The translations under genes were made by a program, and so were the position numbers. Under the pieces are notes generated by a model, which had not been told where the DNA came from, ran no database searches, and saw nothing but the letters and a program-made list of their open reading frames with translations. Positions 7,525 to 31,992 of a DNA stretch of 32,000 nt are shown here, piece by piece. This DNA comes from Candidatus Bipolaricaulota bacterium (lineage in GTDB: Bacteria > Bipolaricaulota > Bipolaricaulia > Bipolaricaulales > Bipolaricaulaceae). The number at the start of each line of letters is the position of its first letter. The first letter of the stretch is position 1. The stretch spans positions 36,313-68,312 of the forward strand of contig JANXBT010000001.1 in NCBI GenBank assembly GCA_025060415.1, given 5' to 3'.

Positions 7525-7527
7525 CCC

Positions 7528-12540: not shown

Positions 12541-12541
12541 A

Positions 12542-12553
12542 GTTTTGCAAAAC
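12542..12553. promoter_or_regulatory. perfect 12-bp palindrome GTTTTGCAAAAC, candidate IclR operator
   Basis: The sequence is its own reverse complement. It begins 2 nt after the -10 hexamer and so covers the expected transcription start. Confidence 0.5.
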
Positions 12554-12577
12554 AGCTAAATTGCTGGGAGGTGGGTG

Positions 12578-13909: not shown

Positions 13910-13935
13910 AGACGCTGACCGAAAGGCGAAAGGAA

Positions 13936-13968
13936 AGAGGGGCTGGCTCGTCTCAGGCCAGCCCCTCT
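13936..13968 (+). other. intercistronic stem-loop between the binding-protein and permease genes
   Basis: AGAGGGGCTGGC (13936-13947) pairs perfectly with GCCAGCCCCTCT (13957-13968) across a 9-nt loop. No U-tract follows on the + strand (TGCTTAAAAAATC). Confidence 0.5.
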
Positions 13969-13993
13969 GCTTAAAAAATCTAGGTTCGGGAAC

Positions 13994-15705: not shown

Positions 15706-15714
15706 CGGGGGTGA

Positions 15715-16467: not shown

Positions 16468-16482
16468 GGTAGGTGAGGCCAG

Positions 16483-17289
16483 ATGCGCGGGTTGCGGGGG
16501 AAGGTTGCGGTGATTACTGGCGGCGGTGGAGTCCTTTGCTCGCAGATCGCGGAGTGTTTGGCTGAGGAGGGCGTGCGCATTGCCTTGTTGGACATCGCCG
16601 AGGAGAAAACGCAAGAGGCTCTACGGCGGGTGTTAGCCAAAGGAGCCGAGGGCTTGGCTTTTAGAGCGAGCGTTCTTTCCCGTGAGGATCTCATACGGGT
16701 AGCTGAACAGGTTTTGGCCTCCTTCGGTCGCGTCGATTTCCTCATTAACGGAGCCGGCGGGAATCACCCGCGCGGCACAGTTACCGACGAGGTTTCCTTT
16801 TTTGATCTTCCCGAGGATGGCGTGCGGTTCGTTTTCGACCTGAACTTTTGGGGCACATTTCTGCCTTCGCAAGTTTTCGGGAAGATTATGGCTCATCAAA
16901 AAGAAGGGGTGATTCTCAACATCGCCTCCATGAGCTCGTTCCGACCGCTGACGCGGGTCCCGGCCTACTCTGCGGCCAAAGCTGCAGTAGCCAATTTCAC
17001 CCAGTGGCTGGCCGTTTACTTGGCGCAGGAGTATTCTCCTCGGATTCGCGTGGTTGCCATCGCGCCAGGTTTTTTCTTGACCGAGCAGAACAAATATCTG
17101 CTCTTAGGTCCGCAAGGGGAGCTGACGGAACGCGGTCAGAGGATCCTCGCCCACACCCCTATGGGGCGGTTCGGGGCTCCAGTCGATCTTTGCGGTGCCG
17201 TGAAGTGGTTACTGTCGGACGAAGCGGCCTTTGTGACCGGAATTGTGCTCCCCGTGGACGGCGGGTTTTCCGCGTACGGCGGAGTTTAG
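16483..17289 (+). CDS. SDR oxidoreductase, UxuB/YjmF-like subfamily (possible hexuronate/mannonate-type oxidoreductase)
   Basis: 268 aa. TGGGGVLC glycine-rich loop, INGAGGNHP, YSAAK. From memory, the INGAGGN...FFDL...DLNFxGTFLPSQVF pattern resembles SDR-type D-mannonate oxidoreductases. Not verified by search. Confidence 0.75.
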   Translation: MRGLRGKVAVITGGGGVLCSQIAECLAEEGVRIALLDIAEEKTQEALRRVLAKGAEGLAFRASVLSREDLIRVAEQVLASFGRVDFLINGAGGNHPRGTVTDEVSFFDLPEDGVRFVFDLNFWGTFLPSQVFGKIMAHQKEGVILNIASMSSFRPLTRVPAYSAAKAAVANFTQWLAVYLAQEYSPRIRVVAIAPGFFLTEQNKYLLLGPQGELTERGQRILAHTPMGRFGAPVDLCGAVKWLLSDEAAFVTGIVLPVDGGFSAYGGV

Positions 17290-17290
17290 G

Positions 17291-18286
17291 CTAACAAGGG
17301 CGAAACCGCTCGGCCAACGCGCGGTTCACCAGCCCAACGGGCAAGAGGCCGTGAAGCGCGCGCCCGATGTCTTCTGCCAGTTTTTTACGCAGTTCCACCA
17401 AAGAGTCCTCGGAGTACCAAGCGGCGTGCGGTGACCAGAGCACTTGGGGCAAGGTCCGCAGCGGGTCTTTGGGATCAGGGGGTTCCGGATCGCTTACGTC
17501 TAAACAAGCACCCGCAAGGGTTCCGGCCTTAAGGGCCTGGAACAAAGCGTCTTTGTCGACAATTGCCCCGCGTGCCGTGTTGATTAAACACGCTGTGGGT
17601 TTCATCTTGGCCAGCGCCTCGGCGTTGAGTAAATGGCGCGTTTCCGGGGTGAGCGGGACGTGGATTGAAAGGAAATCGCTTTCGCGAAGCAAGCGTTCCC
17701 AATCAACACGCTCCACGCCTTCCGCAGCGAAACTTTCGTCGGACACATACGGATCGTAAGCGATAACCTTCAGCCCAAAAGCTTTCGCCTTACGCGCTAC
17801 GAAGCGGGCAATCTTTCCAAAACCCAAGAGGCCAAGTACCTGACCGCGCAGACGGCGCATGGGACGCCCTGTCTTCCAATCCCATTCCCCTTTGCGAATC
17901 TCTTCCGTGTAGTGGACTACTCTTCGCGCCCAAGCTAGGAGAAAAGCCATAACATGGTCCGAGACCTCCTCTTCGCAGTAAGACGGCACATTGACTACGG
18001 CAATCCCCCGTTCCGTGGCAGCCGGCACATCGATGTTGTCTACGCCGATGCCGTACCGGCCTATTACCTTGCATCGGTTCAAACCCCAAATGACGTCCCG
18101 TGTTATGGGGGCGTACTGCGAGATAAGGGCGTCGGCTTCCCGTGCTACAGCAAGGACTTCCTCAGGGGTTCGGCATTGCGCAGGCACCACTTGTGCGTTC
18201 CACTGCCTTAGCGTGTTTTCCTCGATGGATAAATCCGGATAGTTGTAGTCCGTAACTATCACCGTCCACCGCATCGGTCCAGCCAT
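17291..18286 (-). CDS. D-isomer-specific 2-hydroxyacid dehydrogenase family (CtBP/GhrB/2-ketogluconate reductase-like)
   Basis: 331 aa. NAD site GLLGFGKIARFVARKA, INTARGAIVD, and a catalytic HAAW region. The start could be ATG 18274. The stop lies 1 nt from the convergent SDR stop. Confidence 0.85.
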   Translation of the reverse strand: MAGPMRWTVIVTDYNYPDLSIEENTLRQWNAQVVPAQCRTPEEVLAVAREADALISQYAPITRDVIWGLNRCKVIGRYGIGVDNIDVPAATERGIAVVNVPSYCEEEVSDHVMAFLLAWARRVVHYTEEIRKGEWDWKTGRPMRRLRGQVLGLLGFGKIARFVARKAKAFGLKVIAYDPYVSDESFAAEGVERVDWERLLRESDFLSIHVPLTPETRHLLNAEALAKMKPTACLINTARGAIVDKDALFQALKAGTLAGACLDVSDPEPPDPKDPLRTLPQVLWSPHAAWYSEDSLVELRKKLAEDIGRALHGLLPVGLVNRALAERFRPC

Positions 18287-18297
18287 GGTGTGGGCGC

Positions 18298-18326
18298 TTT
18301 ATACTTTAAAAGGCCTGTTTTGTCAA
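18298..18326 (-). promoter_or_regulatory. consensus-like promoter for the 2-hydroxyacid dehydrogenase gene
   Basis: Read on the minus strand: TTGACA (18326..18321), a 17-nt spacer, then TATAAA (18303..18298). The ATG at 18286 would leave only a few nt of leader and there is no SD. Confidence 0.55.
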
Positions 18327-18345
18327 GGGCAAAAGGAGGCTAGAA

Positions 18346-19113
18346 GTGTTGCGGCTTGACTTGACGGGAAAAGTCGCCATAGTGACCGGGGCGGGCGGGG
18401 GGCTGGGGCGGGCAATGGCCCTTGGTCTGGCGCAAGCCGGGGCCGCTGTGGTTCTGGTGGGCCGTTCTGGGTTGGGTCTTGAGGAAACCCTCCGAGAAAT
18501 CCAGGCCTTGGGTCGTCCGGGCTTGGCCCTGCGCGCTGATGTTGCCATCCGAAATGAGACGAAGCGTGTGGTCCAAACCGCGCTGGAACGCTTTTCCCGC
18601 GTGGACATCGTGGTGAATGCCGCCGGGGTTAACCGGCGCATCCCCTCGCTCGAGGTGCGTGAAGAGGACTGGGATTGGATTCTGGGGGTAAACCTTAAAG
18701 GGACGTTCTTTATGTGTCAAGCCGCGGGAGAGGTGATGCTGCGCCAGAGAGCAGGGAGCATTATTAATGTCGCCTCGCTTCTTTCCGAAGTAGGGATACC
18801 CACGCTGGCTCCGTACGCGGCTTCGAAAGCAGGGGTGGTCGGGCTCACCCGCGTATTGGCCGCGGAATGGGGGCCTTATGGGGTCCGGGTGAACGCGATA
18901 GGGCCGGGCTACTTCCGTACACGGATGACGGAGCCTTTGTTCAGCGACCCCCACTGGGTGGCAAGGCTTCTGCAGCAAGTACCATTAGGGCGTGCCGGGA
19001 TACCTGAGGATTTGGTGGGAATCACGGTTTTTCTGGCCTCCGACGCGTCGGCCTACCTCACCGGACAAGTGATCTACGTGGATGGCGGCTACTTATGCGC
19101 CCGCCCGGCCTAG
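18346..19113 (+). CDS. SDR oxidoreductase, KduD/gluconate-5-dehydrogenase-like
   Basis: 255 aa. TGAGGGLG, NAAG, YAASK, and a W..ILGVNLKGTFF pattern. AAGGAGG lies 6 nt upstream of GTG 18346. Confidence 0.85.
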   Translation: MLRLDLTGKVAIVTGAGGGLGRAMALGLAQAGAAVVLVGRSGLGLEETLREIQALGRPGLALRADVAIRNETKRVVQTALERFSRVDIVVNAAGVNRRIPSLEVREEDWDWILGVNLKGTFFMCQAAGEVMLRQRAGSIINVASLLSEVGIPTLAPYAASKAGVVGLTRVLAAEWGPYGVRVNAIGPGYFRTRMTEPLFSDPHWVARLLQQVPLGRAGIPEDLVGITVFLASDASAYLTGQVIYVDGGYLCARPA

Positions 19114-19136
19114 GTTTTTTCTAAAACAAACAAAGA

Positions 19137-19164
19137 TTGACTAAAACGTAGAATGGGATATAAT
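19137..19164 (+). promoter_or_regulatory. candidate promoter upstream of (or within the annotated 5' end of) eda
   Basis: TTGACT (19137-19142), a 16-nt spacer, then TATAAT (19159-19164). The -10 lies downstream of ATG 19153 but upstream of GAGGAGG (19171-19177) and the in-frame TTG 19183. Confidence 0.45.
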
Positions 19165-19827
19165 GCTTTTGAGGAGGGAAAGTTGCGCGAGGTATTGGCG
19201 GACGAGGAGATCAAGCGTACAGGCGCTATCGGGATAATTCGTATACGTACGGCAGAGGACCTGGTAAGAATAGCCGAGGCCCTCCACGCTGGGGGGCTTT
19301 TATGCATCGAGATCACGATGAACACCCCGGGGGCGTTGCAGGCCATCGAACAGGCCCGGGAACGCCTCCCCACCGTGGTGCTGGGGGCCGGCACGGTCCT
19401 CGACGGGGTGACCGCGCGGGAGGCGGTTCTGGCCGGAGCCCAGTTCTTGGTGACCCCGACCGTCAGGCTGGACGTCCTAGAAGTGGCTCATAGGTACGGC
19501 ATCCCTGCTATCATCGGCGCGATGACCCCCACGGAGATCCTCACCGCTTGGGAGGCCGGGGCCACCATGGTCAAGGTTTTCCCCGCTTCGGTCCTCGGGC
19601 CGCGGTACCTCCAAGAGGTGCGCGGGCCTTTGCCCCAAATCCCGCTCGTGCCCACGGGCGGCATCACAGCCGAAAACGCGGCGGAATTCATTCGCGCTGG
19701 GGCCGTAGCTGTCTGCGCCGGGTCCTGGCTTATTGATAAACAGGCCATCGCCGAGGGGCGATACGAGGTGCTCACGGAGCGCGCACGTCGCCTGGTGGAG
19801 GCGGTCCGGAAGGCCCGCGAATCTTGA
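19153..19827 (+). CDS. eda: 2-dehydro-3-deoxyphosphogluconate (KDPG) / KHG aldolase
   Basis: Pattern IGIIRIRTAEDLVRIAEALHAGGLLCIEITMNTPGAL...GAGTV...FLVTP...G...VKVFPA...PTGGI is typical of the Eda family, including the Schiff-base Lys context VKVFP. The true start may be TTG 19183 (SD-supported). Confidence 0.85.
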   Translation: MGYNAFEEGKLREVLADEEIKRTGAIGIIRIRTAEDLVRIAEALHAGGLLCIEITMNTPGALQAIEQARERLPTVVLGAGTVLDGVTAREAVLAGAQFLVTPTVRLDVLEVAHRYGIPAIIGAMTPTEILTAWEAGATMVKVFPASVLGPRYLQEVRGPLPQIPLVPTGGITAENAAEFIRAGAVAVCAGSWLIDKQAIAEGRYEVLTERARRLVEAVRKARES

Positions 19828-19844
19828 ATTCCCAAGGAGGCGGT

Positions 19845-20834
19845 ATGGGGTACGACCTTGTGACCTTCGGGGAGACGATGATCCGGCTTTCCCCTCCCCA
19901 CTTCCAGCGCTTGGAGCAGGCCACGTCCTTCGACGTCAACGTCGGGGGGGCCGAGCTCAACGTGGCCGTGTCCGCCCAGAGGTTAGGGCTTCGCTGCGCC
20001 TACGTAACCCGGCTCACCGATAACCCCTTGGGCCGCATGATCGCCAACAAGGCCCGCGAGCACGGTGTGGACGTTTCTCACATCCTCTGGACCAAAGAGG
20101 ATCGGGTTGGGCTTTACTTCGTGGAGTTCGGCGCCAGCCCCCGCGCCAGTTCCGTCCTCTACGACCGGGCCCACTCCGCAATGGCGAGGATCAAGCCCGG
20201 CGAGGTGAACTGGGATCGCGTGTTCGAGGGAGCCCGGGCGTTCCACACCACGGGGATCACCCCCGCCCTCTCCCCTTCCGCCGCGGAGGCCACCAAAGAG
20301 GCGGTGCGAAAGGCCAAGGAAAAAGGGGTGTTGGTCTCCCTCGACCTCAACTACCGTGCGCGCCTGTGGAGCCCTGAGGAAGCCCGGCGGGTGATGACCG
20401 AGCTCGTCTCCCAGGCGGACATCCTCATCACCACCGAAGAGGATGCGGAACGGGTGTTCGGGGTGAAGGAAGGGTCCTTTGAGAAGATGGCGGAACGGCT
20501 GGGGCAGATGTTTGGCAACCTGAAGGTTGTGGCCGTCACGATCCGGGAAACGCCCTCCGTGTGGCGCAACACGTGGACGGCCTTGGCCTACAGCGCAGGC
20601 CGGATCCTTCGCGGCCCGGTTTTTGACGTGGAAATTGTGGACCGCGTGGGAGCAGGCGACGCCTTCGCCGGCGGATTCCTCTACGGCTACCTCACCAAAG
20701 ACGTGGAGGCCGGGCTCCAATACGGGGTGGCCCTCTCCGCGCTGAAGCAGACCAACCCCGGGGACCTCGTCTGGGCCACCAAAGAGGAGTGCGAACGGAT
20801 CCTGGCCGGAGCGGGGTTGCGGATCGTGCGCTGA
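19845..20834 (+). CDS. kdgK: 2-dehydro-3-deoxygluconokinase (PfkB family)
   Basis: 329 aa. GGAELNVAV, the [15 protein letters not shown] pattern and [20 protein letters not shown] lies 4 nt upstream of ATG 19845, so the track start at 19824 (TTG) is rejected. Confidence 0.85.
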
Positions 20835-20844
20835 GGAGAAGGGG

Positions 20845-21588
20845 ATGAGGATCGTTCGCTTTGGCCGGGGAAGCTGGGGTGTGGTGGAAGGGGAAGTGGT
20901 GCGCGTCACCCGTGGGCCAGGCGGGAGCTTCACAAGGAAGCGCCTCCCCCTCGCGGAGGTGCGGCTCCTCCCCCCCACCAAGCCCACCAAGATCGTCTGT
21001 GTGGGGCGCAACTACCGCCGGCACGCGCAGGAGATGGGCGAGGAGGTGCCCAAGGAGCCCGGGCTCTTCCTCAAGGCCCCGAATGCGCTGGCGGCGCCGG
21101 GCTCGATCCTCCCCTATCCTTCCTTCACGCACAGCCTTCACTACGAGGGCGAGCTCGCGGTGGTGGTGGGCAAAAGGATGCGCCGCGTCTCCGAGGACAA
21201 AGCCCTCGCGTATGTTCTTGGCTACACATGCGCCCTGGACCTCACCGCCCGCGATGTGCAAAAGACCGATCTCCAATGGATTCGCGCCAAGTCCGCCGAT
21301 GGGTTTTGCCCCCTTGGCCCCTGGGTGGAGACGGACGTCGCCCCGTTTGACTTGCGCTTGCGCACCTTCGTGAACGGCGAGGTGCGCCAGGATGCCCGCA
21401 CTTCGGCCATGATCTTTTCCATTCCCTTCCTGCTCGCGTACGTCAGCTCGTTCATGACGCTCGAGCCCGGGGATGTCCTCCTCACGGGCACCCCGGAGGG
21501 GGTGGGCGAGCTGAAGCCGGGCGATGAGGTGGCCGTAGAGATCGAGGGCATCGGGAGGCTTTCCGTTCGCGTCGCCCCCGCCTCCTGA
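20845..21588 (+). CDS. fumarylacetoacetate hydrolase (FAH) family protein (hydratase/decarboxylase/diketo-acid hydrolase type)
   Basis: 247 aa. [43 protein letters not shown] and [13 protein letters not shown] are hallmark FAH-domain blocks. AGGAGAAGGGG sits upstream. Confidence 0.85.
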
Positions 21589-21628: not shown

Positions 21629-22525
21629 ATGGGCAGGTGGCTTTTCTGCCTCGGTTTGCTCCTCGTGGCCTGCGCGGGCGCTGCGGAGCCGGTACGGGTT
21701 TACGTGGGCGTCTACGTGCTGAACCTGGGGAAGTTCGAGCTCGCCACCGGGGCGTACACGGTGGACTTCTACCTGTCCCTGCGGGCGGAGCGGCCCATCA
21801 CCATGGACGAGTTCGAGTTCATGAACGGGCGTGCGGCCACCATCGATCGGCTCATCGATACGCCGACGGAGAAGTTCTACCGCATCCAGGCCAACCTCTC
21901 GCAAAATTTGGATTTGCGCCGCTACCCCTTCGATGAGCATCTCTTGACCATCGAGATCGAAGACAAACGCCGCACGGTCAACGAGCTCGTCTACGTGGTG
22001 GACGAAAAGGCCTGTGGGGTTGACCCCGGCGTGATCGTGGTGGGCTGGCGCCTCGCGGGCTGGGAGGCCACGGTGACCACGCACGAGTACACGATCTACG
22101 AGGAAACCTACTCGCGGTTCGTGTTCGGCCTCCGTATCCGGAGGGTTACGCTCAACGCCGTGATCAAATCGTTCCTCCCCATCGTCTGCATGCTCCTGGT
22201 GGGGTTCCTTTCCCTCCTCCTTACGCCGGACAAGGTCACCACACGGCTCTCCCTGAACATCTCCACGCTCCTGGGGGCCGTGATGTTCCACGTGAACCTG
22301 ACCTCCTCCATCCCGCCCGTGGGCTACCTCACCCTGGCCGACCGGGTCATGATCGCCACCTATTTGATCCTGGTCCTGATCCTGCTGAGCGGGGTGGCGA
22401 TCCTCCGCTGGGCGGAGCGGGAGGAGAAGAAAGCCCAAGTCAAGCGCATCTATCACCAGGCCCTGGCGGCGATCCCCGTGCTCACCGTGGTCCTCTACGC
22501 CCTGGTGTTCCTGCTCCCGAGCTAG
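21629..22525 (+). CDS. prokaryotic pentameric ligand-gated ion channel (Cys-loop receptor) homologue
   Basis: 298 aa: signal peptide, a ~150-aa beta-rich ectodomain (VYVGVYVLNLGKFELATGAYTVDFYLSL; YPFDEHLLTIEIE, cf. the FPFD loop), then four TM segments. M1 is LNAVIKSFLPIVCMLLVGFL with the conserved Pro. M2 is RLSLNISTLLGAVMF with a Leu at the 9' position. M3 and M4 are joined by a short linker. Motif-level call only. Confidence 0.65.
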   Translation: MGRWLFCLGLLLVACAGAAEPVRVYVGVYVLNLGKFELATGAYTVDFYLSLRAERPITMDEFEFMNGRAATIDRLIDTPTEKFYRIQANLSQNLDLRRYPFDEHLLTIEIEDKRRTVNELVYVVDEKACGVDPGVIVVGWRLAGWEATVTTHEYTIYEETYSRFVFGLRIRRVTLNAVIKSFLPIVCMLLVGFLSLLLTPDKVTTRLSLNISTLLGAVMFHVNLTSSIPPVGYLTLADRVMIATYLILVLILLSGVAILRWAEREEKKAQVKRIYHQALAAIPVLTVVLYALVFLLPS

Positions 22526-23631
22526 GGGCGGAAGGCCACCTTGATCCCCCGCCGGGTGAGGACCGTGCGCAGGGCGGTCCGGTAGTCCGCGAGCGGGAAG
22601 GTGTGGGTGACGATTTTCTCCAGGCCCTCCGCATCGCGCAGCGCCGTCAGAGCGTGGTGGAAGTCCTGGGCGCTGTAGGCGTAGGTGCCGAGCACGCGGA
22701 TCCCGCGGAACCAAAGGGGGGAAAGGTCGAGCCGGGACCGACCGGGCGCCCCGAGGAGGAGCACGGTCCCTCCCTCCCGGACGGCCCACAGGGCTTGGTC
22801 CAGGCTGGTGGGGCTTCCGGCGGCGTCGATGACCAGCGGGAAGCCGCCGCGCCAGGCCGGCGGGCCCAGCGGCGCGCGGTAGCTCCGCGCCCCCTGCGGC
22901 GGGGCCGCCTCCCAGGGGGAGGCGTGCACCCCCTTGCTCCCCAAGGCCCGCGCCATCTCGGCTTGCTGCCGGTGGCGGGCCACGACGTGGATGTCCCGGT
23001 GGCCGAACCACCGGAGGGCGGCCACGGCCAAAAGGCCAAGCGTTCCGGCCCCAAGGACGAGCACGGGATGGGCTTTGTCCATGGAGAGGAGGCGCAGCCC
23101 GCGGAGCACCACGGCCAAGGGTTCGGCCAAAAGCCCGCGTTCCGTGGGCATCTGGGGGGGCAAGGGGTGCACCCGATCCGGATGCACCACGATCCGTTCG
23201 CCCCAGCCGCCGGGCAAATCCCGGTGGTACCCAAGCATCCCCGGGGCAAGGCCCCCTTCCGCCACGTTTTGGCAGAGGGCCTCCTCGCCCTGGGCGCAGG
23301 CCCAGCAGGGGGGAAGGCCGCGCTCGCGGCAAGCCAGAAGGGGGTTGATGGCGGCCCGCACGCCCCCCACCTCCGCCACGATCTCGTGCCCCAGCACGGC
23401 GGGGAACGAGAAGAAGGGGGCCAAGCGGGGCGAGCTTTTCCCAAAAAGAAGGGCGAGATCGGATCCGCAGATCCCCGAAAGGAGCACCCGGCCCTTCTCC
23501 CACCCGGGCGGGGGCTCGGGCTCCGGAAGCTCGCGCAAGCGCAGGGGCAAAAGGCCGAAGGGCGTGTGCTTTCCCAGGGCGCGCGCCGCGAGGTACCGGG
23601 GGACGGAGGCCGTGTAGACGAGGGCCTTCAT
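22522..23631 (-). CDS. zinc-dependent MDR alcohol/polyol dehydrogenase family
   Basis: 369 aa. GICGSD, GHE, a structural-Zn Cys cluster (C..ERGLPPCWACAQGEEALC) and the Rossmann motif VLGAGTLGL. ATGA overlap with the upstream aldolase-like gene. Confidence 0.85.
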   Translation of the reverse strand: MKALVYTASVPRYLAARALGKHTPFGLLPLRLRELPEPEPPPGWEKGRVLLSGICGSDLALLFGKSSPRLAPFFSFPAVLGHEIVAEVGGVRAAINPLLACRERGLPPCWACAQGEEALCQNVAEGGLAPGMLGYHRDLPGGWGERIVVHPDRVHPLPPQMPTERGLLAEPLAVVLRGLRLLSMDKAHPVLVLGAGTLGLLAVAALRWFGHRDIHVVARHRQQAEMARALGSKGVHASPWEAAPPQGARSYRAPLGPPAWRGGFPLVIDAAGSPTSLDQALWAVREGGTVLLLGAPGRSRLDLSPLWFRGIRVLGTYAYSAQDFHHALTALRDAEGLEKIVTHTFPLADYRTALRTVLTRRGIKVAFRP

Positions 23632-24692
23632 GTCATGGGCACCTGGCGGACGAGCCGCCCCTCGATGCGGCGAAGGATGTCCCGCAGGGAGCGGCCGGTG
23701 ATGGTGAGGCCGTGGTTTTTGAGGCCGATCACGGCGCCCGCGGGGTCGGGGGCTTGGCGCACGAGCTCGGCCACGGACCGGGCGAGCTCATAGCTTCCGC
23801 AGGGGTAGTGGGCCTGGGTGGCGGGCACCCCGTCCATCCAGGCGTGCACGTGGATGATGGCCCCCACCTCGGGGTGCTCCCGGTAGATCATCCAGTGCTC
23901 GATGGCGTCCACGGAAACCCGACGGGGCTCGACGTGCGGGGGCACGGAGAGGACGATGCAGTTCTCCTGGGGATCGTAATCCTTGACGAGGAGGATGTCC
24001 CGGCCGATCACGCGCAGGTTGGCCTTGTCCACCCCGGAGGCCGACATCCAAAAGCGCTTGGCGTCCTTGCGCACGGAGAGGTTGCCGTAGGAGAGGCCGC
24101 CGATGCCGTAGAGCCTCTGCACGTGGCGGAAGTCCTCGGGCGGCAGGATCCGATCGAGGGGGAAAGGGGCGGGTAGGAGGTTCCAGGAGGCCAAAACCCT
24201 CCCGGCTTCGGCCAGCTCGCGGGTGAGCGCGTCCCCCTCCCAAAGCTCCGGCTCCAGGTCCGGCTCGAACCGGTTTTTGATGACCAGGGTGGCCGAGGCC
24301 ATGGGGTGGATCCGCGCCACAAGGCGCGGGAAAAAGCCCTCGCCCTCCGCCTCGCTGTAGTGCCCCAGATCCAGGGTGAAGAAGTGGGCTTCCCTCCCGG
24401 GGAGGTACACGAGGAGCATGTTGGCCAGGGTGCGCACGAGGTAGGGGTACATGGCCGACACCGGATCGGCCGGGAGCTCCGGGGCCTCCAGGAGCGAGAG
24501 CACGAAGGTGGCCTGGGCCCGGCGCCGGTAGGGCCGGGGGTTGGCCGTGGACACGAAGTTCAGCACCAGGCGGGGCGCGGGGTCCTGCGGGGCGTAGCGG
24601 TAGCCCTGCTCCTCCAGGGCCTGGGGCAATCCCGTAGCGAGGGGCCTCAGCCCGGGCGTAGGCTCGCCGTGGCAGGCAAACGTGAGGGCCAT
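23628..24692 (-). CDS. class II aldolase/adducin-domain protein with an uncharacterised ~190-aa N-terminal domain
   Basis: 354 aa. The C-terminal half has aldolase_II-like blocks (GNLSVR, WMSASGVDK, DAIEHWMIY, GAIIHVHAW, NHGLTITG). I could not assign the N-terminal half. GAGGTGG lies 5 nt upstream of ATG 24692, so the track start 24779 is rejected. Confidence 0.7.
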   Translation of the reverse strand: MALTFACHGEPTPGLRPLATGLPQALEEQGYRYAPQDPAPRLVLNFVSTANPRPYRRRAQATFVLSLLEAPELPADPVSAMYPYLVRTLANMLLVYLPGREAHFFTLDLGHYSEAEGEGFFPRLVARIHPMASATLVIKNRFEPDLEPELWEGDALTRELAEAGRVLASWNLLPAPFPLDRILPPEDFRHVQRLYGIGGLSYGNLSVRKDAKRFWMSASGVDKANLRVIGRDILLVKDYDPQENCIVLSVPPHVEPRRVSVDAIEHWMIYREHPEVGAIIHVHAWMDGVPATQAHYPCGSYELARSVAELVRQAPDPAGAVIGLKNHGLTITGRSLRDILRRIEGRLVRQVPMT

Positions 24693-24781
24693 GCAGACCA
24701 CCTCGAAACGCAGGATATCCCAAGGGCACGGGCGGGGCCAGGGTTGTGCGGGAGGGCCGCAGAGGGGAACATTGCCCATCC

Positions 24782-26455
24782 ATGCGGGTTTTGGCCCTCG
24801 CCCTCTTGGGGGTCTGGGCCTGGGCCCAAGTCCCCACCGCCCTCGTGCGGGTGGAGGTGGTGCCGCCCGCGCCGGTGCGCCCAGGTGGGGAGGCCGTGGC
24901 CCAGGTGCGGATCGACATCGCTCCCGGCTGGCACATCCACGCCCATGCTCCCTCCCAGGCCTTCCTCATCCCCACCCGGCTCGAGTGGGATTGGCCGGAG
25001 GGCTTCACGGGCGAGGAGCGCTGGCCCGCCCCGGAGATCCGCCGGCTCCGTTTTTCCCAGGCCCCCTTGGAGCTCTACGAGGGCGTGATCGCGGTGGAGC
25101 TGCGGATCCGCGCGGGGGCCGGGGTCGCCCCGGCCACCTACCGGATCCGCGGAAGGCTCCGCTACCAGGCTTGCAGCGACGAGGTGTGCGTCCCGCCGGC
25201 GAGCGTGGAGGTGGAGCTCCCCGTGGAGGTCGTCCCGGGCGGGGCGGCCCCTCCCGGGCCGGGCGCCGGCTTCGCCCGCGGGTTCCTGTGGGCCCTGGGC
25301 GCCGCGTTCCTGGTGGGGTTGGGGTTGAACCTCACCCCCTGCGTGTACCCCATGGTGCCCGTGACGGTGGCCTACTTCGCGAAGGTCGCGGGGCAGCGGG
25401 TCCTGGGCACGCTGGGCCTGGCCCTGGCCTACCTTTTGGGCCTCGCCCTCACGTATTCCGCGCTGGGGGCCTTGGCCGCGCTGGGAGGGGGGCTTTTGGG
25501 CATGGCCCTCCAGCACCCCGCGGTGCTCGCCTTCCTGGCGGCGGTGATGGTGGCCCTCGCCCTGAGCTTCTTTGGGGTCTACACCCTGCGGGCTCCGGCC
25601 GCGCTCCTTCGGCGCCTGCCCCGGGCCCAGGCCGGCCCCTGGGGGGCGTTCCTCATGGGCGCGGTGGTGGGCCTGGTGGCCGCGCCCTGCGTGGGCCCCG
25701 CCACGGTGGCCTTCCTCTCCTACGTGGCCAGCCTCGGCGACCCCCTCAAGGGGTTCGTCCTCTTCTTCGCCCTGGCCCTGGGGCTGGGCCTCCCCTACGT
25801 GGGTTTGGCCCTCCTTTCCGGGAAGCTCCGGCGCCTGCCCCGGGCCGGCCCCTGGACGGTGTGGGTGGAGCACCTCCTTGGGTTCCTCCTCTTGGGGATG
25901 GCCTTGTACTTCCTTTCCCCACTCCTGCCCGAGCTGGGCCTGCGGGTGGGGATCGGCCTTCTCGCCGGCGGGGGCGGCCTCTTCCTCCTCGCCTCCGGGC
26001 TGCGCCGGCGCAGCCGGGTCGTGGCCGTCCTGAGCGCGCTGGTCGCGGCCGCCGGCCTGGGGGTAGGGGTGCGCTGGGGGCTCCCGGCGCGCCGCGCCCC
26101 GGAGATCCCCTGGGTTCCCTACAGCGCCGCGGCCCTCGCCCAGGCGCAGGAGCGGGGCACGCCCGTTCTCCTCTACTTTTCCGCGGAATGGTGCATCCCC
26201 TGTAAGGAGCTGGCGGCCACGACGTTCCGCGACGCCCAGGTGCACAGGGAGCTGGCCGCCTGGACGCCGGTGAAGGTGGACCTCACCGAGGTGAGCCCTG
26301 AGGAGGAGGCCCTGCGGCGGCGGTTCGGGGTGGTGGGGGTGCCCACCCTGATCTTCTTGGGGCCCCAAGGGGAGGAGCGGGGGCGCCTGTTCGGCTACGT
26401 CGATGCCCGGGGGTTCTTGGCCGCCCTGCAGCGGGCCTACCCCCGCCCGGGCTGA
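24782..26455 (+). CDS. dsbD: thiol:disulfide interchange protein DsbD (three-domain)
   Basis: Signal peptide MRVLALALLGVWAWA, an N-terminal DsbD-alpha-like domain with YQACSDEVCVPP, a CcdA-type membrane core (NLTPCVYPMVP, APCVGP), and a C-terminal thioredoxin fold with WCIPCK. Confidence 0.9.
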   Translation: MRVLALALLGVWAWAQVPTALVRVEVVPPAPVRPGGEAVAQVRIDIAPGWHIHAHAPSQAFLIPTRLEWDWPEGFTGEERWPAPEIRRLRFSQAPLELYEGVIAVELRIRAGAGVAPATYRIRGRLRYQACSDEVCVPPASVEVELPVEVVPGGAAPPGPGAGFARGFLWALGAAFLVGLGLNLTPCVYPMVPVTVAYFAKVAGQRVLGTLGLALAYLLGLALTYSALGALAALGGGLLGMALQHPAVLAFLAAVMVALALSFFGVYTLRAPAALLRRLPRAQAGPWGAFLMGAVVGLVAAPCVGPATVAFLSYVASLGDPLKGFVLFFALALGLGLPYVGLALLSGKLRRLPRAGPWTVWVEHLLGFLLLGMALYFLSPLLPELGLRVGIGLLAGGGGLFLLASGLRRRSRVVAVLSALVAAAGLGVGVRWGLPARRAPEIPWVPYSAAALAQAQERGTPVLLYFSAEWCIPCKELAATTFRDAQVHRELAAWTPVKVDLTEVSPEEEALRRRFGVVGVPTLIFLGPQGEERGRLFGYVDARGFLAALQRAYPRPG

Positions 26456-27423
26456 GCCGAGGCCTGGAGCTCCGCCAGGAGCGCCCGTGCCTCCGCCCAA
26501 GCCCTCTCCGCCAGAACCGGGGAGATGAGCCCCTCCGCGGCCTTCTTCTCCAGGACCTCCGCGTCCAGAAGGCGGAGCTCCCCGCCCACGCGGGCGATGT
26601 CGATCTCCAGGTCCAGGTAGCGGATCTCGCCGGGCAGGAACTCGGGGGGCGTTTGGATGTTGTAGATCTCGCCGAGGAGCTCGCCGTTGGCGCGGAAGTA
26701 GGTGCGGCGGCTCCACCACCGGTCCGGAAGGAACTCCACGTAGCCTTGGTCGCCCGCGTTTTTGGGGAGGCCCAGCCCGTCGTAGGTGCCCCCGGCTCGG
26801 AAGGCGCGGCGCACCACCACCCGCCCCCGCTGGGCCTCCACAAGCTCCCCGCCCTGCCGGATCGGGGCCTCCCCAGCCTTCCCGTGCACGATGCTCACCG
26901 GCCTTCCCGGCGCGTAGTGGGCCCAGATAAGCTCCTCCTCTAAAACCTGGGCCAGCGCCGCCTCCCCCTTGGCCTCGGCCTCGTCCACGCGCGCGGGATC
27001 GAGGGTTTTCAGGAGGTGGTGTCCGGGCAGGGTGAAGAGGACCTCCGCCCGCACCCGGTCGAGGAGGTCCTTGGCGGGTTTGGGGAAGTCCCCTTCGGCC
27101 CGGGCGAGCAGGGCCGCCGCGGCGGCCAGGGGGCCCTCCTTGCGCGGCCTCGGGGGCGGGGCCTGCCAGCTGAACACCGCCCAGGGGATCCTCTCCCGCA
27201 AAAACGCCACCACCTCCTCCGCCGCGCTCCGCACCCCTTCGATCACGATCCCGTGCCGGTCCGGCCGGTCCTGGATCGTCACCTCCGCGGGGCCCTCCGC
27301 CGGGCTCAGCCCGAACCGGGCCTGGATCACCTCGCTCGGCTCCACCAGGGCGAAGCGCTCCCGCAAGAGGGCGGTGAGGGCGGTGGCGTAGATCCCGCGC
27401 ACGCGCACCCTAACGGGGCTCAT
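26437..27423 (-). CDS. FAU-1-like / DUF402-domain protein (putative RNA-binding ribonuclease or nucleotide phosphatase)
   Basis: 328 aa. From memory, the N-terminus MSPVRVRVRGIYATALTALL resembles archaeal FAU-1. The C-terminal ~110 aa (RWWSRRTYFRANGELLGEIYNIQTPP...IRYLDLEIDIARVGGELRLLDAEVL) fits the DUF402 pattern. 14-nt overlap with rtcA. Confidence 0.55.
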   Translation of the reverse strand: MSPVRVRVRGIYATALTALLRERFALVEPSEVIQARFGLSPAEGPAEVTIQDRPDRHGIVIEGVRSAAEEVVAFLRERIPWAVFSWQAPPPRPRKEGPLAAAAALLARAEGDFPKPAKDLLDRVRAEVLFTLPGHHLLKTLDPARVDEAEAKGEAALAQVLEEELIWAHYAPGRPVSIVHGKAGEAPIRQGGELVEAQRGRVVVRRAFRAGGTYDGLGLPKNAGDQGYVEFLPDRWWSRRTYFRANGELLGEIYNIQTPPEFLPGEIRYLDLEIDIARVGGELRLLDAEVLEKKAAEGLISPVLAERAWAEARALLAELQASAQPGRG

Positions 27424-28453
27424 ACCCGATGCCCTGGAGGGTCAGGCGCTTGCCCTCGAGCTTCCAACGCACCCCAAGCAGGCCCTCCACCAGCCACAGG
27501 TTGGCCTCCACGTGGTCGGTGACCGCGGGCACAAGATAGGCGGATTCGCCCTTGGCCAGGGCCGCGTAGAGGATGAGCTGGTCGGCGAGGTGGCGGTCCA
27601 CGGTGGCCCCGGCCTCGAGGTCCTCGAGGAGCGCGCGGGCCACGTATTCGGCGATGGCCTCGGCGGGGCGACCGGGGGCGCCGGCCTGGTCCGCCCCCAG
27701 GCGCGCGCCGGCCTGGTCCTCGGCGATCAGGGCCAAGGCGGCCCCGGGTTGGATGGCGCTCTCGTCGTGTTCGATCCGAAAGTCCGCGGAGATCCCCCGG
27801 CGCGCCAGCTCCTCCTGGCAGCGGCGGGCCATGCGCTCCGCCACCCGCCGCTCCCGCAGGTGCGAGTCCAGGGCCAGGCCCCAAAAGCGCAGGGGCTTGC
27901 GGAGCTCCTCCCGGCGGAGCGGCGCCAAAGGGCCGCGGAGCGGCTGGACCCGAAGCTCGATCTCCCCTCCGCCCTTGGGCACGTACCCCGGCCGGAGGAC
28001 GCGGAGCTCAGCCCTCAGCCCCATCCCCTGCAGGGCGGGGAGGAGCACGTGCTGGGTGTGGAAAGCGGAGGGCGCGAAGTCCTGAAAGAGGCCGCCCCGG
28101 ATGCGGAAGGCGCAGGGCCGTCGGGCGAAGGCGGCGATGGGGAGGAGGGTGAGGGCGAGCATGGTGGTGGAGCCGGCGGTGCCGATGTCCCAGGTGAAGT
28201 CCCCGCCCAGGGCCGCGGCCCTGGGGCGGAAGAGGATCTCTCGGCTGCCCACCTCTGCGCCCTCGAGCTCCCCCTGGACCAGGGCGGCCGCGGCCTCCAC
28301 GGCCCGCAGGTGCTGGGGCCGCAGGCCCGGGTTGTCCCGCTTGGCGCGGATGTTGTAGATCCGGATGGGCTCGCCCAGGAGGGCCGCCAGGACCACCCCG
28401 GTGCGCACCAGGGTCCCGCTCCCCGACTTCTGCCCGCCGTCCACCGTCCACAT
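27410..28453 (-). CDS. rtcA: RNA 3'-terminal phosphate cyclase
   Basis: 347 aa. N-terminus VDGGQKSGSGTLVRTGVVLAALLGEPIRIYNIRAKRDNPGLRPQHL and the active-site His context DRHLADQLILYAAL match the RtcA family pattern. Confidence 0.85.
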   Translation of the reverse strand: MWTVDGGQKSGSGTLVRTGVVLAALLGEPIRIYNIRAKRDNPGLRPQHLRAVEAAAALVQGELEGAEVGSREILFRPRAAALGGDFTWDIGTAGSTTMLALTLLPIAAFARRPCAFRIRGGLFQDFAPSAFHTQHVLLPALQGMGLRAELRVLRPGYVPKGGGEIELRVQPLRGPLAPLRREELRKPLRFWGLALDSHLRERRVAERMARRCQEELARRGISADFRIEHDESAIQPGAALALIAEDQAGARLGADQAGAPGRPAEAIAEYVARALLEDLEAGATVDRHLADQLILYAALAKGESAYLVPAVTDHVEANLWLVEGLLGVRWKLEGKRLTLQGIGYEPR

Positions 28454-28474
28454 CGGGCCCCAAGTTTAGGGCGC

Positions 28475-29233
28475 CTAGTTGCGCAGGGAAATGAGGCGGA
28501 GGCCCTCCAGGGTGAGCCAGGGGTCCACGGCCTCCACCTCGGAGAGGAGCGGCGCCAGGAGGGAGGCCCATTCGCCCGTGGCCACGGCCCGCGCCGTCCC
28601 CCCAAGCTCCGCGCGCATGCGCCGCACCACCCCGTCCACCAGGGCCGCGTGCCCCAGGACGGCCCCGGCCTGGACGGCGGCGAGGGTGTTTTTCCCCAGG
28701 GCGCTGGGGGGCAACGCCAGGGGGACGCGGGGGAGCTGGGCCGTGCGCTCCGCCAGGGCCTCCAGGCCCAGGGCCAAGCCGGGGGCGATGGCCACGCCCA
28801 CCAGGGCGCCCGGCGCGGCCACGGCCACGAAGCTCGTGGCGGTGCCGAAGTCCACGGCGATGCAGTTCCCCTGGAAGCGGGCGTAGGCGGCCACGGCGTT
28901 GGCCACGAGGTCCGCCCCCACCTCGCTGGGGTGGTCCGTGCGGATGGCCAGCCCCGTGCGCACCCCCGGCCCCACCACCAGCACCTCCGCGCCCAGCCAG
29001 CCCTCCCCCAGCTCCCGGAACACCGGCACCAGCGGGGGCACGGCGCTGGCCACCACCACCCGCGTGATCCGCTCCTCCAGGCCCCGCGCCCGCAGGAGCT
29101 CCCGGAGGAGCACCGCGTACTCGTCCGCGGTCTTGCCGGGAACGGTGCGCAGCCGGAACCGGGCCCGCCAGCCGGCGCCGTCGTGGCAGCCCAGGCTGAT
29201 CAGGGTGTTCCCGATGTCGACGGCCAAAAGCAC
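28475..29233 (-). CDS. coaX: type III pantothenate kinase
   Basis: 252 aa from GTG 29233 (VLLAVDIGNTLISLG...). DFGTATSF and the ASKHA fold pattern. The 575-aa track ORF (to 30202) is an alternate-frame read-through artefact. The start is 1 nt after the upstream stop. Confidence 0.85.
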   Translation of the reverse strand: MLLAVDIGNTLISLGCHDGAGWRARFRLRTVPGKTADEYAVLLRELLRARGLEERITRVVVASAVPPLVPVFRELGEGWLGAEVLVVGPGVRTGLAIRTDHPSEVGADLVANAVAAYARFQGNCIAVDFGTATSFVAVAAPGALVGVAIAPGLALGLEALAERTAQLPRVPLALPPSALGKNTLAAVQAGAVLGHAALVDGVVRRMRAELGGTARAVATGEWASLLAPLLSEVEAVDPWLTLEGLRLISLRN

Positions 29234-29234
29234 G

Positions 29235-29648
29235 TCAGGACGGGGGGAGCTCCTGGACCAGCTCCTCGTACACCGCTTCCTCGATGTAGATGGGCGAGCC
29301 GGTGCGGAGGGCCAGGGCCACGGAGTCCGAGGGCCGGGCGTCCACCCGCACCCGCTCCCCGCTTTCCTTGCGGATGTGGAGGGAGGCGTAGCAGATCCCC
29401 TCCTCCAGCCGGTCCAGCACCACCTCCTCCAGCGTGGCCTCCAGGGCCGCGAGCACGGCGGAGAGGAGGTCGTGGGTGAGGGGGCGCGGGGGCGCGGTGC
29501 CTTCCAGCCCGATGAGGATGGCCACGGCCTCCGCCTCCCCAATCCGCAGGGGCACGAAATGCTCTTCCTCGTTGGGGTCGCGCAGAAGGAGCACCGGCCC
29601 CCCGCTTTCCTGGTCCACGGCGATGCCCGCCACCACCAATTCCCGCAT
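29235..29648 (-). CDS. bifunctional nuclease (DUF151/BFN) domain protein
   Basis: 137 aa. VLLLRDPNEEEHFVPLRIGEAEAVAILIGLEGTAPPRPLTHDLL...VDARPSDSVALALRTGSPIYIEE is the DUF151 signature layout. Confidence 0.8.
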   Translation of the reverse strand: MRELVVAGIAVDQESGGPVLLLRDPNEEEHFVPLRIGEAEAVAILIGLEGTAPPRPLTHDLLSAVLAALEATLEEVVLDRLEEGICYASLHIRKESGERVRVDARPSDSVALALRTGSPIYIEEAVYEELVQELPPS

Positions 29649-29727
29649 GTTCCTTTCTCACCCCCGGGGCCGAAACGCGGCCCGTTTCGTCGTCCATGAT
29701 ACGGGGGGCCCGGGGGCGGGACCAGGC

Positions 29728-30390
29728 TCAGCCGGAGACGTTGAGCTCCTCCATCCTCCCCGTGACCACGAAGATCACCCGCTCGCAGATGTTCGTGACC
29801 AGGTCCGCGAAGCGCTCGAGGTTGTGGCTGGCCCACATGAGGTAGGTGGCCTGGGTGATGTTGCGGGGCTCCTGGATCATGAGGAGGAAGAGTTCCCGGT
29901 GGACCTGGTCGTGGAGGGCGTCCACCTCGTCGTCGCGGAGGGCGATGCGGCGGGCGGCCTCGGCGTCGCGCCGGCGCAGGGCGTCCAGGGCCCCCTCCAG
30001 CATCCCCAGCGCCAGCTCCGTCATGCGCGGAATGTCCACCAGCGGCTTGATCAGGGGGGTTTTCCCGATGAGGAGGGTGATGCGGGCCAGGCCCGCGGCA
30101 TGATCGCCCATGCGTTCCAGGTCCGTCACGATGTGCATGAGGGCCGTGATCAAGCGTAGGTCGGAGGCCATGGGCTGCTGGGTGGCCAAGAGCTCCAGGC
30201 ACTTCTCCTCGATGGCGAAGCGCTGGCGGTTGATCTCCAGGTCCCCGCTCACCACGGCCTGGGCGAGCTCGAGGTCCTGGGCCTTGAGGCTGTGCAGGGC
30301 GTGGCGGAGGGCCTGGGCCACCGCCCGCCCCAGCCCCTCCACCTCCGCCTCCAGGGCCTGCAGGCTGCGAACCAACCCTTCCCGTACCAT
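29728..30390 (-). CDS. phoU: phosphate signalling complex protein PhoU
   Basis: 220 aa with a two-repeat PhoU fold (DLERMGDHA and NLERFADLV). AAGGAG lies 7 nt upstream of ATG 30390. The track start (TTG 30411) overlaps pstB and is rejected. Confidence 0.9.
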   Translation of the reverse strand: MVREGLVRSLQALEAEVEGLGRAVAQALRHALHSLKAQDLELAQAVVSGDLEINRQRFAIEEKCLELLATQQPMASDLRLITALMHIVTDLERMGDHAAGLARITLLIGKTPLIKPLVDIPRMTELALGMLEGALDALRRRDAEAARRIALRDDEVDALHDQVHRELFLLMIQEPRNITQATYLMWASHNLERFADLVTNICERVIFVVTGRMEELNVSG

Positions 30391-30403
30391 CCCGGGCTCC
30401 TTT

Positions 30404-31180
30404 TCAGCCAAAGCGGCCGGTGATGTAGGCCTCCGTGCGGGGGTCCTTGGGCCGGGTGAAGAGCTCCCGCGTGGGCCCGTACTCCACCAGCTCCCCCAGG
30501 AGCAAAAAGGCCGTGTAGTCGCTCACCCGCGCCGCCTGCTGCATGTTGTGGGTCACGATGACGATGGTCACGGAGGAGGAGAGCTCGCGGATGAGGTCCT
30601 CGATCTTGGCCGTGGCCACGGGGTCCAGGGCCGAGCAGGGCTCGTCCATGAGGAGCACCTCGGGCTCCACGGCCAGGGCCCGGGCGATGCACAGCCGCTG
30701 CTGCTGCCCCCCGGAGAGGTCGTAGCCCGTCTTGCGATGGAGGTCGTCCTTCACCTCGTCCCACAGGGCCGCCCGGCGCAGCGCCCACTCCACCCGCTCC
30801 CGCAGGTTCCCCCGGAACCCGTTCACCCGCAGCCCGAAGGCCACGTTCTCGAAGATGCTCTTGGGGAAGGGGTTGGGCTTTTGGAACACCATGCCGATCC
30901 GGCGCCGGATCTCCACGGGGTCCACTTTAGGGTCGTAGACGTTGAGGCCCCGGAAGAGGATGGCCCCCTCCGCCCGGAACCCGGGGATGAGGTCGTTCAT
31001 GCGGTTGATGGACCGGATGAGCGTGCTTTTGCCGCAGCCGGAGGGGCCGATGATGGCGGTGACCCGGCGCTCCGGGATCTCCAGGGTCACGCCCCGCAGG
31101 ACCTGGGCCTTCCCGTACCAGGCGGAAAACCCCTGTATAGCGAGCACCGGCGAGGGCACCTCATCCCAATAGATCGTCAT
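30404..31180 (-). CDS. pstB: phosphate ABC transporter ATP-binding protein
   Basis: Walker [10 protein letters not shown], signature LSGGQQQRL, Walker [12 protein letters not shown]. The ATG at 31180 overlaps the pstA stop (ATGA) and is preceded by GGAGGTG. Confidence 0.92.
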
Positions 31181-31992
31181 TCGGCCCACCTCCGCTGGAA
31201 GCGCGCCCGCAGGAGGATGGCCAGGGCGTTGAGGAGGAGGACGAGCCCCAAAAGGACGAGGATGGCGCAGGCCGCCACCACGGCGTAGCCGTCCTGGGGC
31301 CGCGTGGCCCAGTCGAAGATCTGGATGGGCACCACGGTGAAGCTGTCCCGCAGGCTCTGGGGCACGTAGGTCACGTAGAGGAAGGCGCCCAAAAACAGGA
31401 GGGGGGCGGCCTCGCCCAGGGCGCGGGAGAGGCTCAGGACCACGCCGGTGAGGATGCCCGGGAGAGCGTAGGGGAGGACGTGGTGGCGCACGGTCTGCCA
31501 GGGGGTCGCGCCCACGCTGAACGCCGCCTCCCGCAGGGTCCTGGGCACGGTGCGTAAGGCCTCCCGGCTAGCGATGATAACCAAGGGGAGGACCAGGACG
31601 GCCAGGGTGAACCCGCCGGCGAGGATGGACCTTCCCAGGTTCATGGCCCGGGCGAAGATCTCCAGGCCCAGAAGCCCCACCACGGCCGAGGGCAGCCCGG
31701 CCAGGCTCGCCACGAGCACCTCCAGCGCCGCAGTGAACCGGGTCTGGCGGGCGTACTCCTCGAGATAAATCGCGGCCGCAATCCCCAGGGGGAAGGCCAC
31801 CGCGGCCATCACGAGCACGACCCCCAGGGACCCCAAAAAGGCGGGCAGGAGCCCCGCCTGCTCCGGGTAGCGGGGGTCGCCCAGGCGCGTGAGGAGCGCG
31901 CGCCAGGCCCGCCAAGCGTTCCGCTCCACGGGGAGCACCCCGCTCCGCCGCGGGTCCCACAGGAGCTCCAGGGTTTCCTCCCCCCGGCGCAC
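31177..31992 (-). CDS. pstA: phosphate ABC transporter permease PstA (5' end uncertain, ORF open to the window edge)
   Basis: PstA-type membrane protein with EAA-like loop [26 protein letters not shown]. The reading frame stays open to position 32000, so the real start may lie outside the window. Confidence 0.85.

Follow-up and report, generated by a model that had tools for sequence, protein, structure and literature searches.

The window analysed here, a stretch of 32,000 nucleotides (nt) from contig JANXBT010000001.1 of a Candidatus Bipolaricaulota bacterium, carries two overlapping genes: rtcA, encoding an RNA 3'-terminal phosphate cyclase of 347 amino acids (aa) (27410..28453), and directly behind it the gene of a 328-aa protein (26437..27423). 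From its sequence and predicted structure we identify the 328-aa protein as a short, or 'mini', member of the RNase W/FAU-1 lineage of ribonucleases, devoid of the 5' sensor. It is coupled to an RtcA of a distinct clade, and the cassette of rtcA followed by an RNase W gene is conserved across both prokaryotic domains. The linkage of the two genes is secure; from it we infer a mechanism, in which RNA would be cut and its 3' end kept cyclic. Coordinates are those of the window unless a locus is named; the genes of the cassette and those preceding it lie on the reverse strand.

The identity of the 328-aa protein is secure. In a phmmer search of the PDB it matches FAU-1/RNase W structures only, namely 8WO8 and 8RZA of P. 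furiosus RNase W and 8RZF of the S. acidocaldarius enzyme, with E-values from 5e-33 to 7.5e-37. An earlier note, made from the letters of this DNA alone, had proposed a FAU-1-like N-terminus and a DUF402 C-terminus, and the match to Pyrococcus FAU-1/RNase W at E 7.5e-37 bears this out. The AlphaFold2 model, built from 34 homologues, has a pLDDT of 94.8 and a pTM of 0.92. With this model as the query, the three RNase W structures rank first in Foldseek (query-normalised TM 0.83, 0.79 and 0.75; E 1.8e-29 to 5.8e-28).

The phmmer match falls into two blocks, residues 2-70 aligned to P. furiosus (Pf) 5-72 and residues 112-306 to Pf 248-455. The part left unmatched between them, approximately Pf 90-247, holds the S1 domain and the 5' sensor, that is, the RNase E/G-like portion of RNase W. 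This insert of about 150 aa is a clean gap in the window protein when it is aligned with eight representatives, and it is replaced by a short linker of about 25 residues (approximately aa 88-111; 27091..27162 by the multiple alignment), which is the least confident part of the model (pLDDT 75). Pfam agrees: DUF402 alone is found in the 328-aa protein (residues 228-289, E 4e-10), with no match to an S1 or RNase_E_G domain, and PF10150 is found in the long RNase W forms and in none of the short ones. Hence, the FAU-1-type architecture of which the earlier note spoke is not present in full, and the mini-RNase W is a variant of the family rather than a typical member. Without the 5' sensor, the short form must select its substrates in another way than full-length RNase W does.

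RNase W is built of five domains, including an N-terminal/central domain, a helical bundle and a divergent DUF402 domain (Vayssieres et al. 2024; PMC11602121), and these three are retained in the window protein. The N-terminal/central domain (approximately aa 1-87; 27163..27423 by alignment to 8rza) shares with the family the RxRGIYxTALT motif and contains R7 and R9, equivalent to Pf R10 and R12. The helical bundle (approximately aa 112-170; 26914..27090) has the His-His pair of the family, with R125, H135, H136 and K139 in the place of Pf R261, H271, H272 and K275. These six Pf positions are the regulatory residues of PfRNase W. Among 34 short forms R125, H135 and H136 are invariant, and R9, G10, I11, Y12 and T14-T17 are kept in at least 90%; R7 and K139 were checked in the window protein alone.

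The catalytic DUF402 domain with the C-terminal helices occupies approximately aa 171-323 (26455..26913; residues mapped by the phmmer alignment). H180, K182, R206, D215 and Y242 correspond to Pf H326, K328, R355, D364 and Y391, and N255, D271, D275 and D287 to Pf N404, D420, D424 and D437. All nine of these active-site residues are invariant or at least 90% conserved among the 34 short forms. The sole change among the residues singled out for PfRNase W is Pf T378, which is V229 in the window protein. The nuclease activity of PfRNase W resides in the DUF402 domain, which is a potent RNase when isolated (PMC11602121).

DUF402 also occurs in enzymes of another kind, and the 328-aa protein might be a small-molecule phosphatase of the Ntdp/FomD type, clearing for example AMP, PPi or ADP-type by-products and unrelated to RNA cleavage. 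DUF402 is indeed the only Pfam domain reported, and Foldseek also retrieves the phosphatases SC4828, FomD and Sa1684 (Ntdp), with which the window protein shares the C-terminal fold and the metal-binding Asn and Asp. However, these matches cover the C-terminal half only, at a TM of about 0.4 against 0.75-0.83 for RNase W. The phosphatases are single-domain proteins with a two-metal Asp cluster that act on free nucleotides (NDP or NTP). The window protein has in addition the two other RNase W parts, the central domain and the helical bundle, each with its conserved Arg and His residues, and it has 3'-phosphate-binding residues specific to RNase W; the RNase-W-specific H180, K182 and D215 are all present. 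In RNase W the third Asp of the DUF402 cluster is described as replaced by Lys. We consider a phosphatase of this type very unlikely.

The ATG of the mini-RNase W gene sits 14 nt inside the 3' end of rtcA, so that the stop of one gene and the start of the other share the sequence ATGAGCCCCGTTAG (27410..27423, read on the reverse strand). This overlap makes translational coupling likely, and the two genes are likely co-transcribed. The same overlap of 14 nt recurs in loci L001-L009, L171 and L174, being kept throughout the Bipolaricaulota and in one locus from Chloroflexota. The closest database relatives of both proteins are named Candidatus Bipolaricaulaceae, with identities of 96% for the 328-aa protein and 86% for RtcA, which makes the organism an uncultured member of Bipolaricaulota (Acetothermia).

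By length, RNase W homologues form two classes, one of about 300-360 aa, the other of about 450-520 aa. To survey the short class we took the 80 top-scoring homologues from GTDB species representatives, all of which are short forms, and examined their loci by tblastn and clustering of open reading frames (ORFs); two of the loci are cut by contig ends, leaving 78. The bacterial carriers are Bipolaricaulota, Chloroflexota/Dehalococcoidia, many Desulfobacterota (Syntrophobacteraceae), Aerophobetes, Nitrospirota, Calditrichota and Syntrophomonadaceae, and the archaeal ones are Bathyarchaeia, Nitrososphaeria, Methanocellales and Aenigmatarchaeota. Outside this set of 80, Armatimonadota have the short form as well. 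No cultured organism is found among the matches, which all come from metagenome-assembled genomes (MAGs) or metagenome contigs. rtcA lies within the locus in 59/78 cases. In 55/78 it is the next gene upstream and has the same orientation, the spacing being mostly -17 to +64 nt, and the remaining four loci with rtcA within 1.5 kb have it in divergent (two) or downstream (two) position. The upstream linkage spans at least eight bacterial phyla as well as Bathyarchaeia, Nitrososphaeria and Aenigmatarchaeota. Adjacency of rtcA and DUF402, for which the earlier note wanted a survey of neighbourhoods, is therefore not unique to this genome.

As a control, 80 full-length forms were taken from metagenomes, of which 65 have enough upstream sequence. 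In 22/65 of these archaeal loci rtcA is located 2-24 nt upstream on the same strand, and one of the linked clusters bears the NCBI name Bathyarchaeota. The pairing is thus not peculiar to bacteria. The full-length forms of Hyperthermus and of an Acetothermia MAG are not linked to rtcA. In locus L136, whose protein cluster has a Bathyarchaeota name, the pair of rtcA and full-length RNase W is preceded at a distance of about 3.3 kb by the gene of an archease homologue (1253-1672), which is encoded on the other strand.

Hence, the conserved unit consists of two genes, rtcA and then RNase W. In the window two more genes precede them on the same strand: one for a 137-aa DUF151 protein with the bifunctional-nuclease domain (BFN; 29235..29648, TGA stop at 29237-29235; Pfam BFN_dom, E 3e-34), and coaX for type III pantothenate kinase (28475..29233, with a GTG start at 29233; Pan_kinase E 2e-58; NF009855 above its cut-off). 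The earlier note had described the layout of these four genes, with a gap of 1 nt between BFN and coaX, one of 21 nt between coaX and rtcA and the 14-nt overlap, and the ORF listing and the reverse-strand sequence match it; its domain identities (DUF151, coaX, RtcA, DUF402) agree with Pfam and NCBIfam, the latter having no model for BFN or the 328-aa protein. As a functional unit, however, the four-gene operon was rejected because coaX and BFN occur upstream of the pair in L001 and L002 only, the closest two relatives. Other recurrent neighbours are specific to their lineages (LpxK, a multihaem cytochrome, GT9, DUF401, an SMC-like protein).

The flanking genes also bear on whether the adjacency could be inherited synteny with no functional coupling, the four-gene block being a compact housekeeping operon. 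coaX, BFN and the phoU-pst genes beyond them (29728..31992) are unrelated housekeeping genes packed on one strand, and many of the surveyed loci come from related Desulfobacterota. Yet the pair persists over at least eight bacterial phyla and three archaeal lineages while all other flanking genes change, and its order, strand and tight spacing are kept. By our own estimate, a given single-copy gene would be the immediate upstream neighbour by chance in about one in a few thousand cases per genome. We regard bare synteny as extremely unlikely.

Several further arrangements were observed around the short forms. In L171 and L174, which represent another Bipolaricaulota-like lineage, the mini-RNase W gene ends 4 nt inside a gene for a 590-aa SMC_N/AAA_23 ATPase (L171, 5014-6786; L174, 4984-6756), giving a three-gene run of rtcA, mini-RNase W and SMC-like gene, with gatB on the other side of the pair. 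In L172 (2510-4051; P0063) an AAA_33 P-loop kinase-like N-terminus is fused to mini-RNase W in a protein of 513 aa with no rtcA upstream, which may be another pairing of RNA end processing with the nuclease. The contigs of L001, L003 and L004 are labelled Thermotogaceae or Neomarinimicrobiota; their rtcA and mini-RNase W are 50-82% identical to the Bipolaricaulota genes and have the same 14-nt overlap, and the taxonomy labels of these MAGs may be wrong.

The cyclase of the window is a genuine RtcA by its profile scores. It reaches 310 bits with the equivalog model TIGR03399 (cut-off 250) and only 103 bits with that of the paralogue Rcl1 (cut-off 228), hence it is not Rcl1, and it has the RTC and RTC_insert architecture of known RtcA enzymes in Pfam. 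Against the PDB it scores nearer to the archaeal enzyme of P. horikoshii (4o89; E 5e-68, 233 bits) than to that of E. coli (1qmh; E 4.5e-38, 135 bits). The adenylylated nucleophile of E. coli RtcA is His309 (PMC3854526), equivalent to His307 of P. horikoshii and, by alignment, to His314 of the window protein (codon 27512..27514). This residue lies in the motif T-D-H-V-E-A-N and is kept in every linked RtcA readable there. For the RNA 3'-phosphate, the window protein has the complete set of binding residues known from the P. horikoshii enzyme (R17, R36, Q47, H48 and the backbone of G13), and it has R39 as well.

What distinguishes the window RtcA is a loop near its N-terminus, which reads S10-G11-S12-G13-T14 (28412..28426) in place of the E-G-G-G-Q of E. 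coli (E14...Q18) and P. horikoshii (E10...Q14). In the RNase-W-linked RtcAs readable at this loop it is S/T-G-S-G-T in 78/78, with Ser (77) or Thr (1) at the Glu position. The canonical Glu, Glu14 of E. coli and Ser10 in the window protein, is presumably a metal ligand for the adenylylation step. Among the best 150 matches in 1.8 billion cluster representatives, SGSGT is found in 27 and EGGGQ in 86; the former fill most of the top 25 or so ranks, and the latter prevail below them. The SGSGT RtcAs thus form a small, distinct clade.

When SGSGT RtcAs are sampled from the cyclase side, a DUF402 gene follows two of five and there is no DUF402 neighbour in the other three. One of the unlinked three ends an rtcB-cobW-archease-rtcA cluster (L169, 132-4074), so the variant clade also accompanies an RNA ligase. 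An exclusive adaptation of the loop to the RNase W partner is ruled out by these cases, and we treat the loop as a signature of the clade. A DUF72 gene lies directly upstream of an rtcA-less mini-RNase W (L035, 4998-5852) and also of an SGSGT RtcA without RNase W (L170, 2214-2945), which may be a coincidence or a third recurrent neighbour.

In a rough neighbour-joining tree of RNase W, built on 284 shared columns, every rtcA-linked gene (55 short, 24 long) falls into one clade of 118 sequences, and no linked gene is found in the haloarchaeal clade (41) or in a third clade (45, including Hyperthermus). Bacterial and archaeal short forms share the linked clade with the rtcA-linked archaeal long forms, and the Bathyarchaeial short forms nest among linked long ones. 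This suggests that the linkage to rtcA is older than the loss of the S1/5'-sensor insert, and that the cassette moved between the domains, as the earlier note had thought possible and as remains plausible. The cassette probably has an archaeal origin and reached several phyla of bacteria from there.

Since linked long forms exist, the partnership with rtcA is not simply a replacement of the sensor. This bears on the possibility that RtcA is a targeting or gating subunit, the short form having lost its sensor and being gated by a complex with RtcA, which would recognise RNA 3'-phosphate ends. The DUF402 RNase of PfRNase W is auto-inhibited by the N-terminal part of the protein, with the 5' sensor as the switch; in the short form the inhibitory residues of the central domain are still present, and that sensor is not. 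The overlapping start and stop codons suggest matched amounts of the two proteins, and RtcA spends most of its RNA contacts on the terminal 3'-phosphate. However, rtcA is also linked to full-length forms with the 5' sensor in place, so the linkage is independent of the sensor loss. No fusion of RtcA and DUF402 was found among ten unusually long proteins checked, whose extensions are a GNAT domain or unannotated, apart from the one AAA_33 fusion. We consider a gating role of RtcA improbable.

We propose instead that rtcA and mini-RNase W form a cut-and-cyclise module for RNA 3' ends, a reading to which we give about even chances. The nuclease would cut single-stranded RNA by transesterification, leaving 2',3'-cyclic-phosphate and 5'-OH ends. 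Some of the cyclic ends would decay to 3'-phosphate, and RtcA, made in step with the nuclease, would re-cyclise them using ATP. The two enzymes would act on one RNA 3' end, fixing its cyclic state. The cyclic end would then be ligated by an RtcB encoded elsewhere or shielded from 3' exonucleases. As RNase W acts in archaeal 16S ribosomal RNA (rRNA) maturation, late in that of H. volcanii, the likeliest substrates would be precursors of rRNA or other stable RNAs. The reaction order, the substrates and any complex of the two proteins are what we infer here.

We draw the module from the ends that FAU-1 is reported to leave. The products of Pfu FAU-1 are phosphatase-resistant and migrate faster, which its authors read as 2',3'-cyclic phosphate and 5'-OH, and its activity is insensitive to EDTA (Ikeda et al. 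2017; PMC5627344). In the PfRNase W crystal, too, the DUF402 active site contains the 3'-phosphate of a dinucleotide, and its authors count the resolution of a cyclic 3'-phosphate among possible reactions (PMC11602121), so that nuclease and cyclase meet at one chemical group. RtcA converts 3'-phosphate into 2',3'-cyclic phosphate, and the window RtcA keeps the His nucleophile and every 3'-phosphate-binding residue of the P. horikoshii enzyme, which speaks for an activity of this kind. The earlier note had already suspected an RNA 3'-end module in rtcA and the 328-aa protein, and the strongly conserved adjacency supports it.

The order of the two reactions might also be reversed, with RtcA acting first and the DUF402 domain hydrolysing the 2',3'-cyclic phosphate or the activated RNA(3')pp(5')A, so as to remodel or take off the terminal 3'-phosphate, which would amount to RtcB-independent healing of 3' ends. 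RNase W holds an RNA 3'-phosphate where Ntdp, FomD and SC4828 hold a nucleotide 5'-phosphate, and those DUF402 enzymes cleave phosphoanhydride or nucleotidyl-phosphonate bonds. Among possible reactions of RNase W its authors name '3'-phosphate cleavage or resolution of cyclic 3'-phosphate' (PMC11602121). In gene order rtcA is always first, and the activated RtcA intermediate is said to be released into solution. On the other side, none of the RNAs and nucleotides tried was dephosphorylated by PfRNase W while its isolated DUF402 domain is a potent RNase, and hydrolysis of the cyclic phosphate to 3'-phosphate would make a futile cycle with RtcA. We find the reversed order possible, though unlikely.

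A bolder form of this idea is an obligate RtcA-RNase W machine, in which the DUF402 site would work on RNA(3')pp(5')A or on the nascent cyclic phosphate. It would provide an ATP-driven, RtcB-independent removal or remodelling of 3'-terminal phosphates in the maturation of rRNA or stable RNA. The cyclases with the SGSGT loop would then differ in mechanism from the others, as a subclass adapted to the partnership. We hold this to be quite unlikely; if true, it would give RtcA a physiological role.

Several points weigh against the cut-and-cyclise module. RtcB ligates 3'-phosphate ends directly, so that re-cyclisation is not obviously needed. The end chemistry of FAU-1 was read from gel mobility and phosphatase resistance only (PMC5627344), and Vayssieres et al. 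saw no phosphatase activity and left the product ends undefined (PMC11602121). The linked RtcAs are without the canonical Glu, so their activity could differ, and three of the five sampled SGSGT-type RtcAs have no DUF402 neighbour. There is no adjacent rtcA for about one quarter of the short forms and about two thirds of the long ones sampled. The tree is a rough neighbour-joining one on 284 columns.

The cassette differs from the RtcR-controlled rtcBA operon for RNA repair in E. coli and Salmonella. Both combine rtcA with a second enzyme for RNA ends carrying 2',3'-cyclic phosphate or 3'-phosphate, but the partner in the window is a nuclease, not the ligase RtcB, rtcA is first in the pair, and no rtcR, Ro or archease is present at the locus. 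A tblastn search with the RtcB of L169 (E<=10) gave no match, either across the window or in the sequence flanking L001-L166, and no Sigma54 activator domain, as expected for a divergent RtcR gene, was found in Pfam scans of 27 window ORFs, nearly all of the larger ones. The earlier note was thus right that neither rtcB nor rtcR is in the window; however, their absence is not unusual. Das and Shuman described the rtcB-rtcA linkage as the exception, never seen by them in archaea, so a missing rtcB near this rtcA is ordinary.

The association of rtcA with RNase W looks new. The RNase W paper describes the family as archaea-specific and leaves open an RNase role of bacterial DUF402 proteins (PMC11602121), whereas the window protein is bacterial and its gene is coupled to rtcA; in a term search that paper has no mention of RtcA, cyclase, neighbourhood or operon. 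Full-text searching for FAU-1 and 'cyclase' returned a single paper, on P. furiosus 23S rRNA, and the 2017 FAU-1 paper (PMC5627344) did not surface; the link to rtcA is mentioned in neither of the two nuclease papers. No paper found by such searching joins DUF402 with RtcA or 'terminal phosphate cyclase'.

Around the cassette, the phoU, pstB and pstA genes mentioned above lie 79 nt from BFN on its upstream side and on the same strand, and are given as context only; phoU was identified by its PhoU domain in Pfam, pstB and pstA were named from the ORF translations alone, and L002 retains part of PhoU. On the other side a dsbD-like thiol:disulfide interchange gene (24746..26455, forward strand; ORF listing and Pfam) is convergent with the mini-RNase W gene, shares 19 nt with its 3' end and delimits the transcription unit on that side. 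The limits of this unit are putative, as a scan of 26200-30600 gave no promoter-like sites and, for terminators, two overlapping weak hairpins only, on the other strand. A cluster of tRNA genes, distant from the locus, was all that Rfam and ARAGORN searches returned.

This cluster consists of six packed tRNA genes (Lys-CTT, Lys-TTT, Glu, Val, Asp and Phe) at 7093-7600, directly upstream of dnaA (7617-8942), which places the window probably near the replication origin. The region 11691-21588 has a G+C content of 0.53-0.62 against about 0.70 in its flanks. Its genes suggest an island for the catabolism of sugar acids, which transfer may have brought in: they encode a sugar ABC transporter, a regulator of the IclR type, three short-chain dehydrogenases/reductases, KDPG aldolase, a 2-hydroxyacid dehydrogenase, an FAA hydrolase and a PfkB kinase. 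Two more genes stand out: a 298-aa ORF with no Pfam match (21629-22525) and the gene of a 383-aa protein (23628-24779) with a class II aldolase domain at aa 224-313 only, the long N-terminal region having no assignment.

Last, we consider what the cassette may mean for the two families. To our knowledge, the physiological role of RtcA has been unclear since the discovery of the enzyme. RtcB, its one known operon partner, does not need it. The 2024 definition of RNase W is that of an rRNA-processing nuclease specific to archaea, whose product ends and regulation are still a question. The rtcA-RNase W cassette ties these two questions to each other and predicts that nuclease and cyclase have a substrate end in common. 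It also draws attention to a distinct clade of RtcA, in which the nucleotide/metal loop is altered, and both proteins of the window are small and thermostable-looking. Many bacteria, as the survey shows, possess relatives of RNase W that have no 5' sensor.

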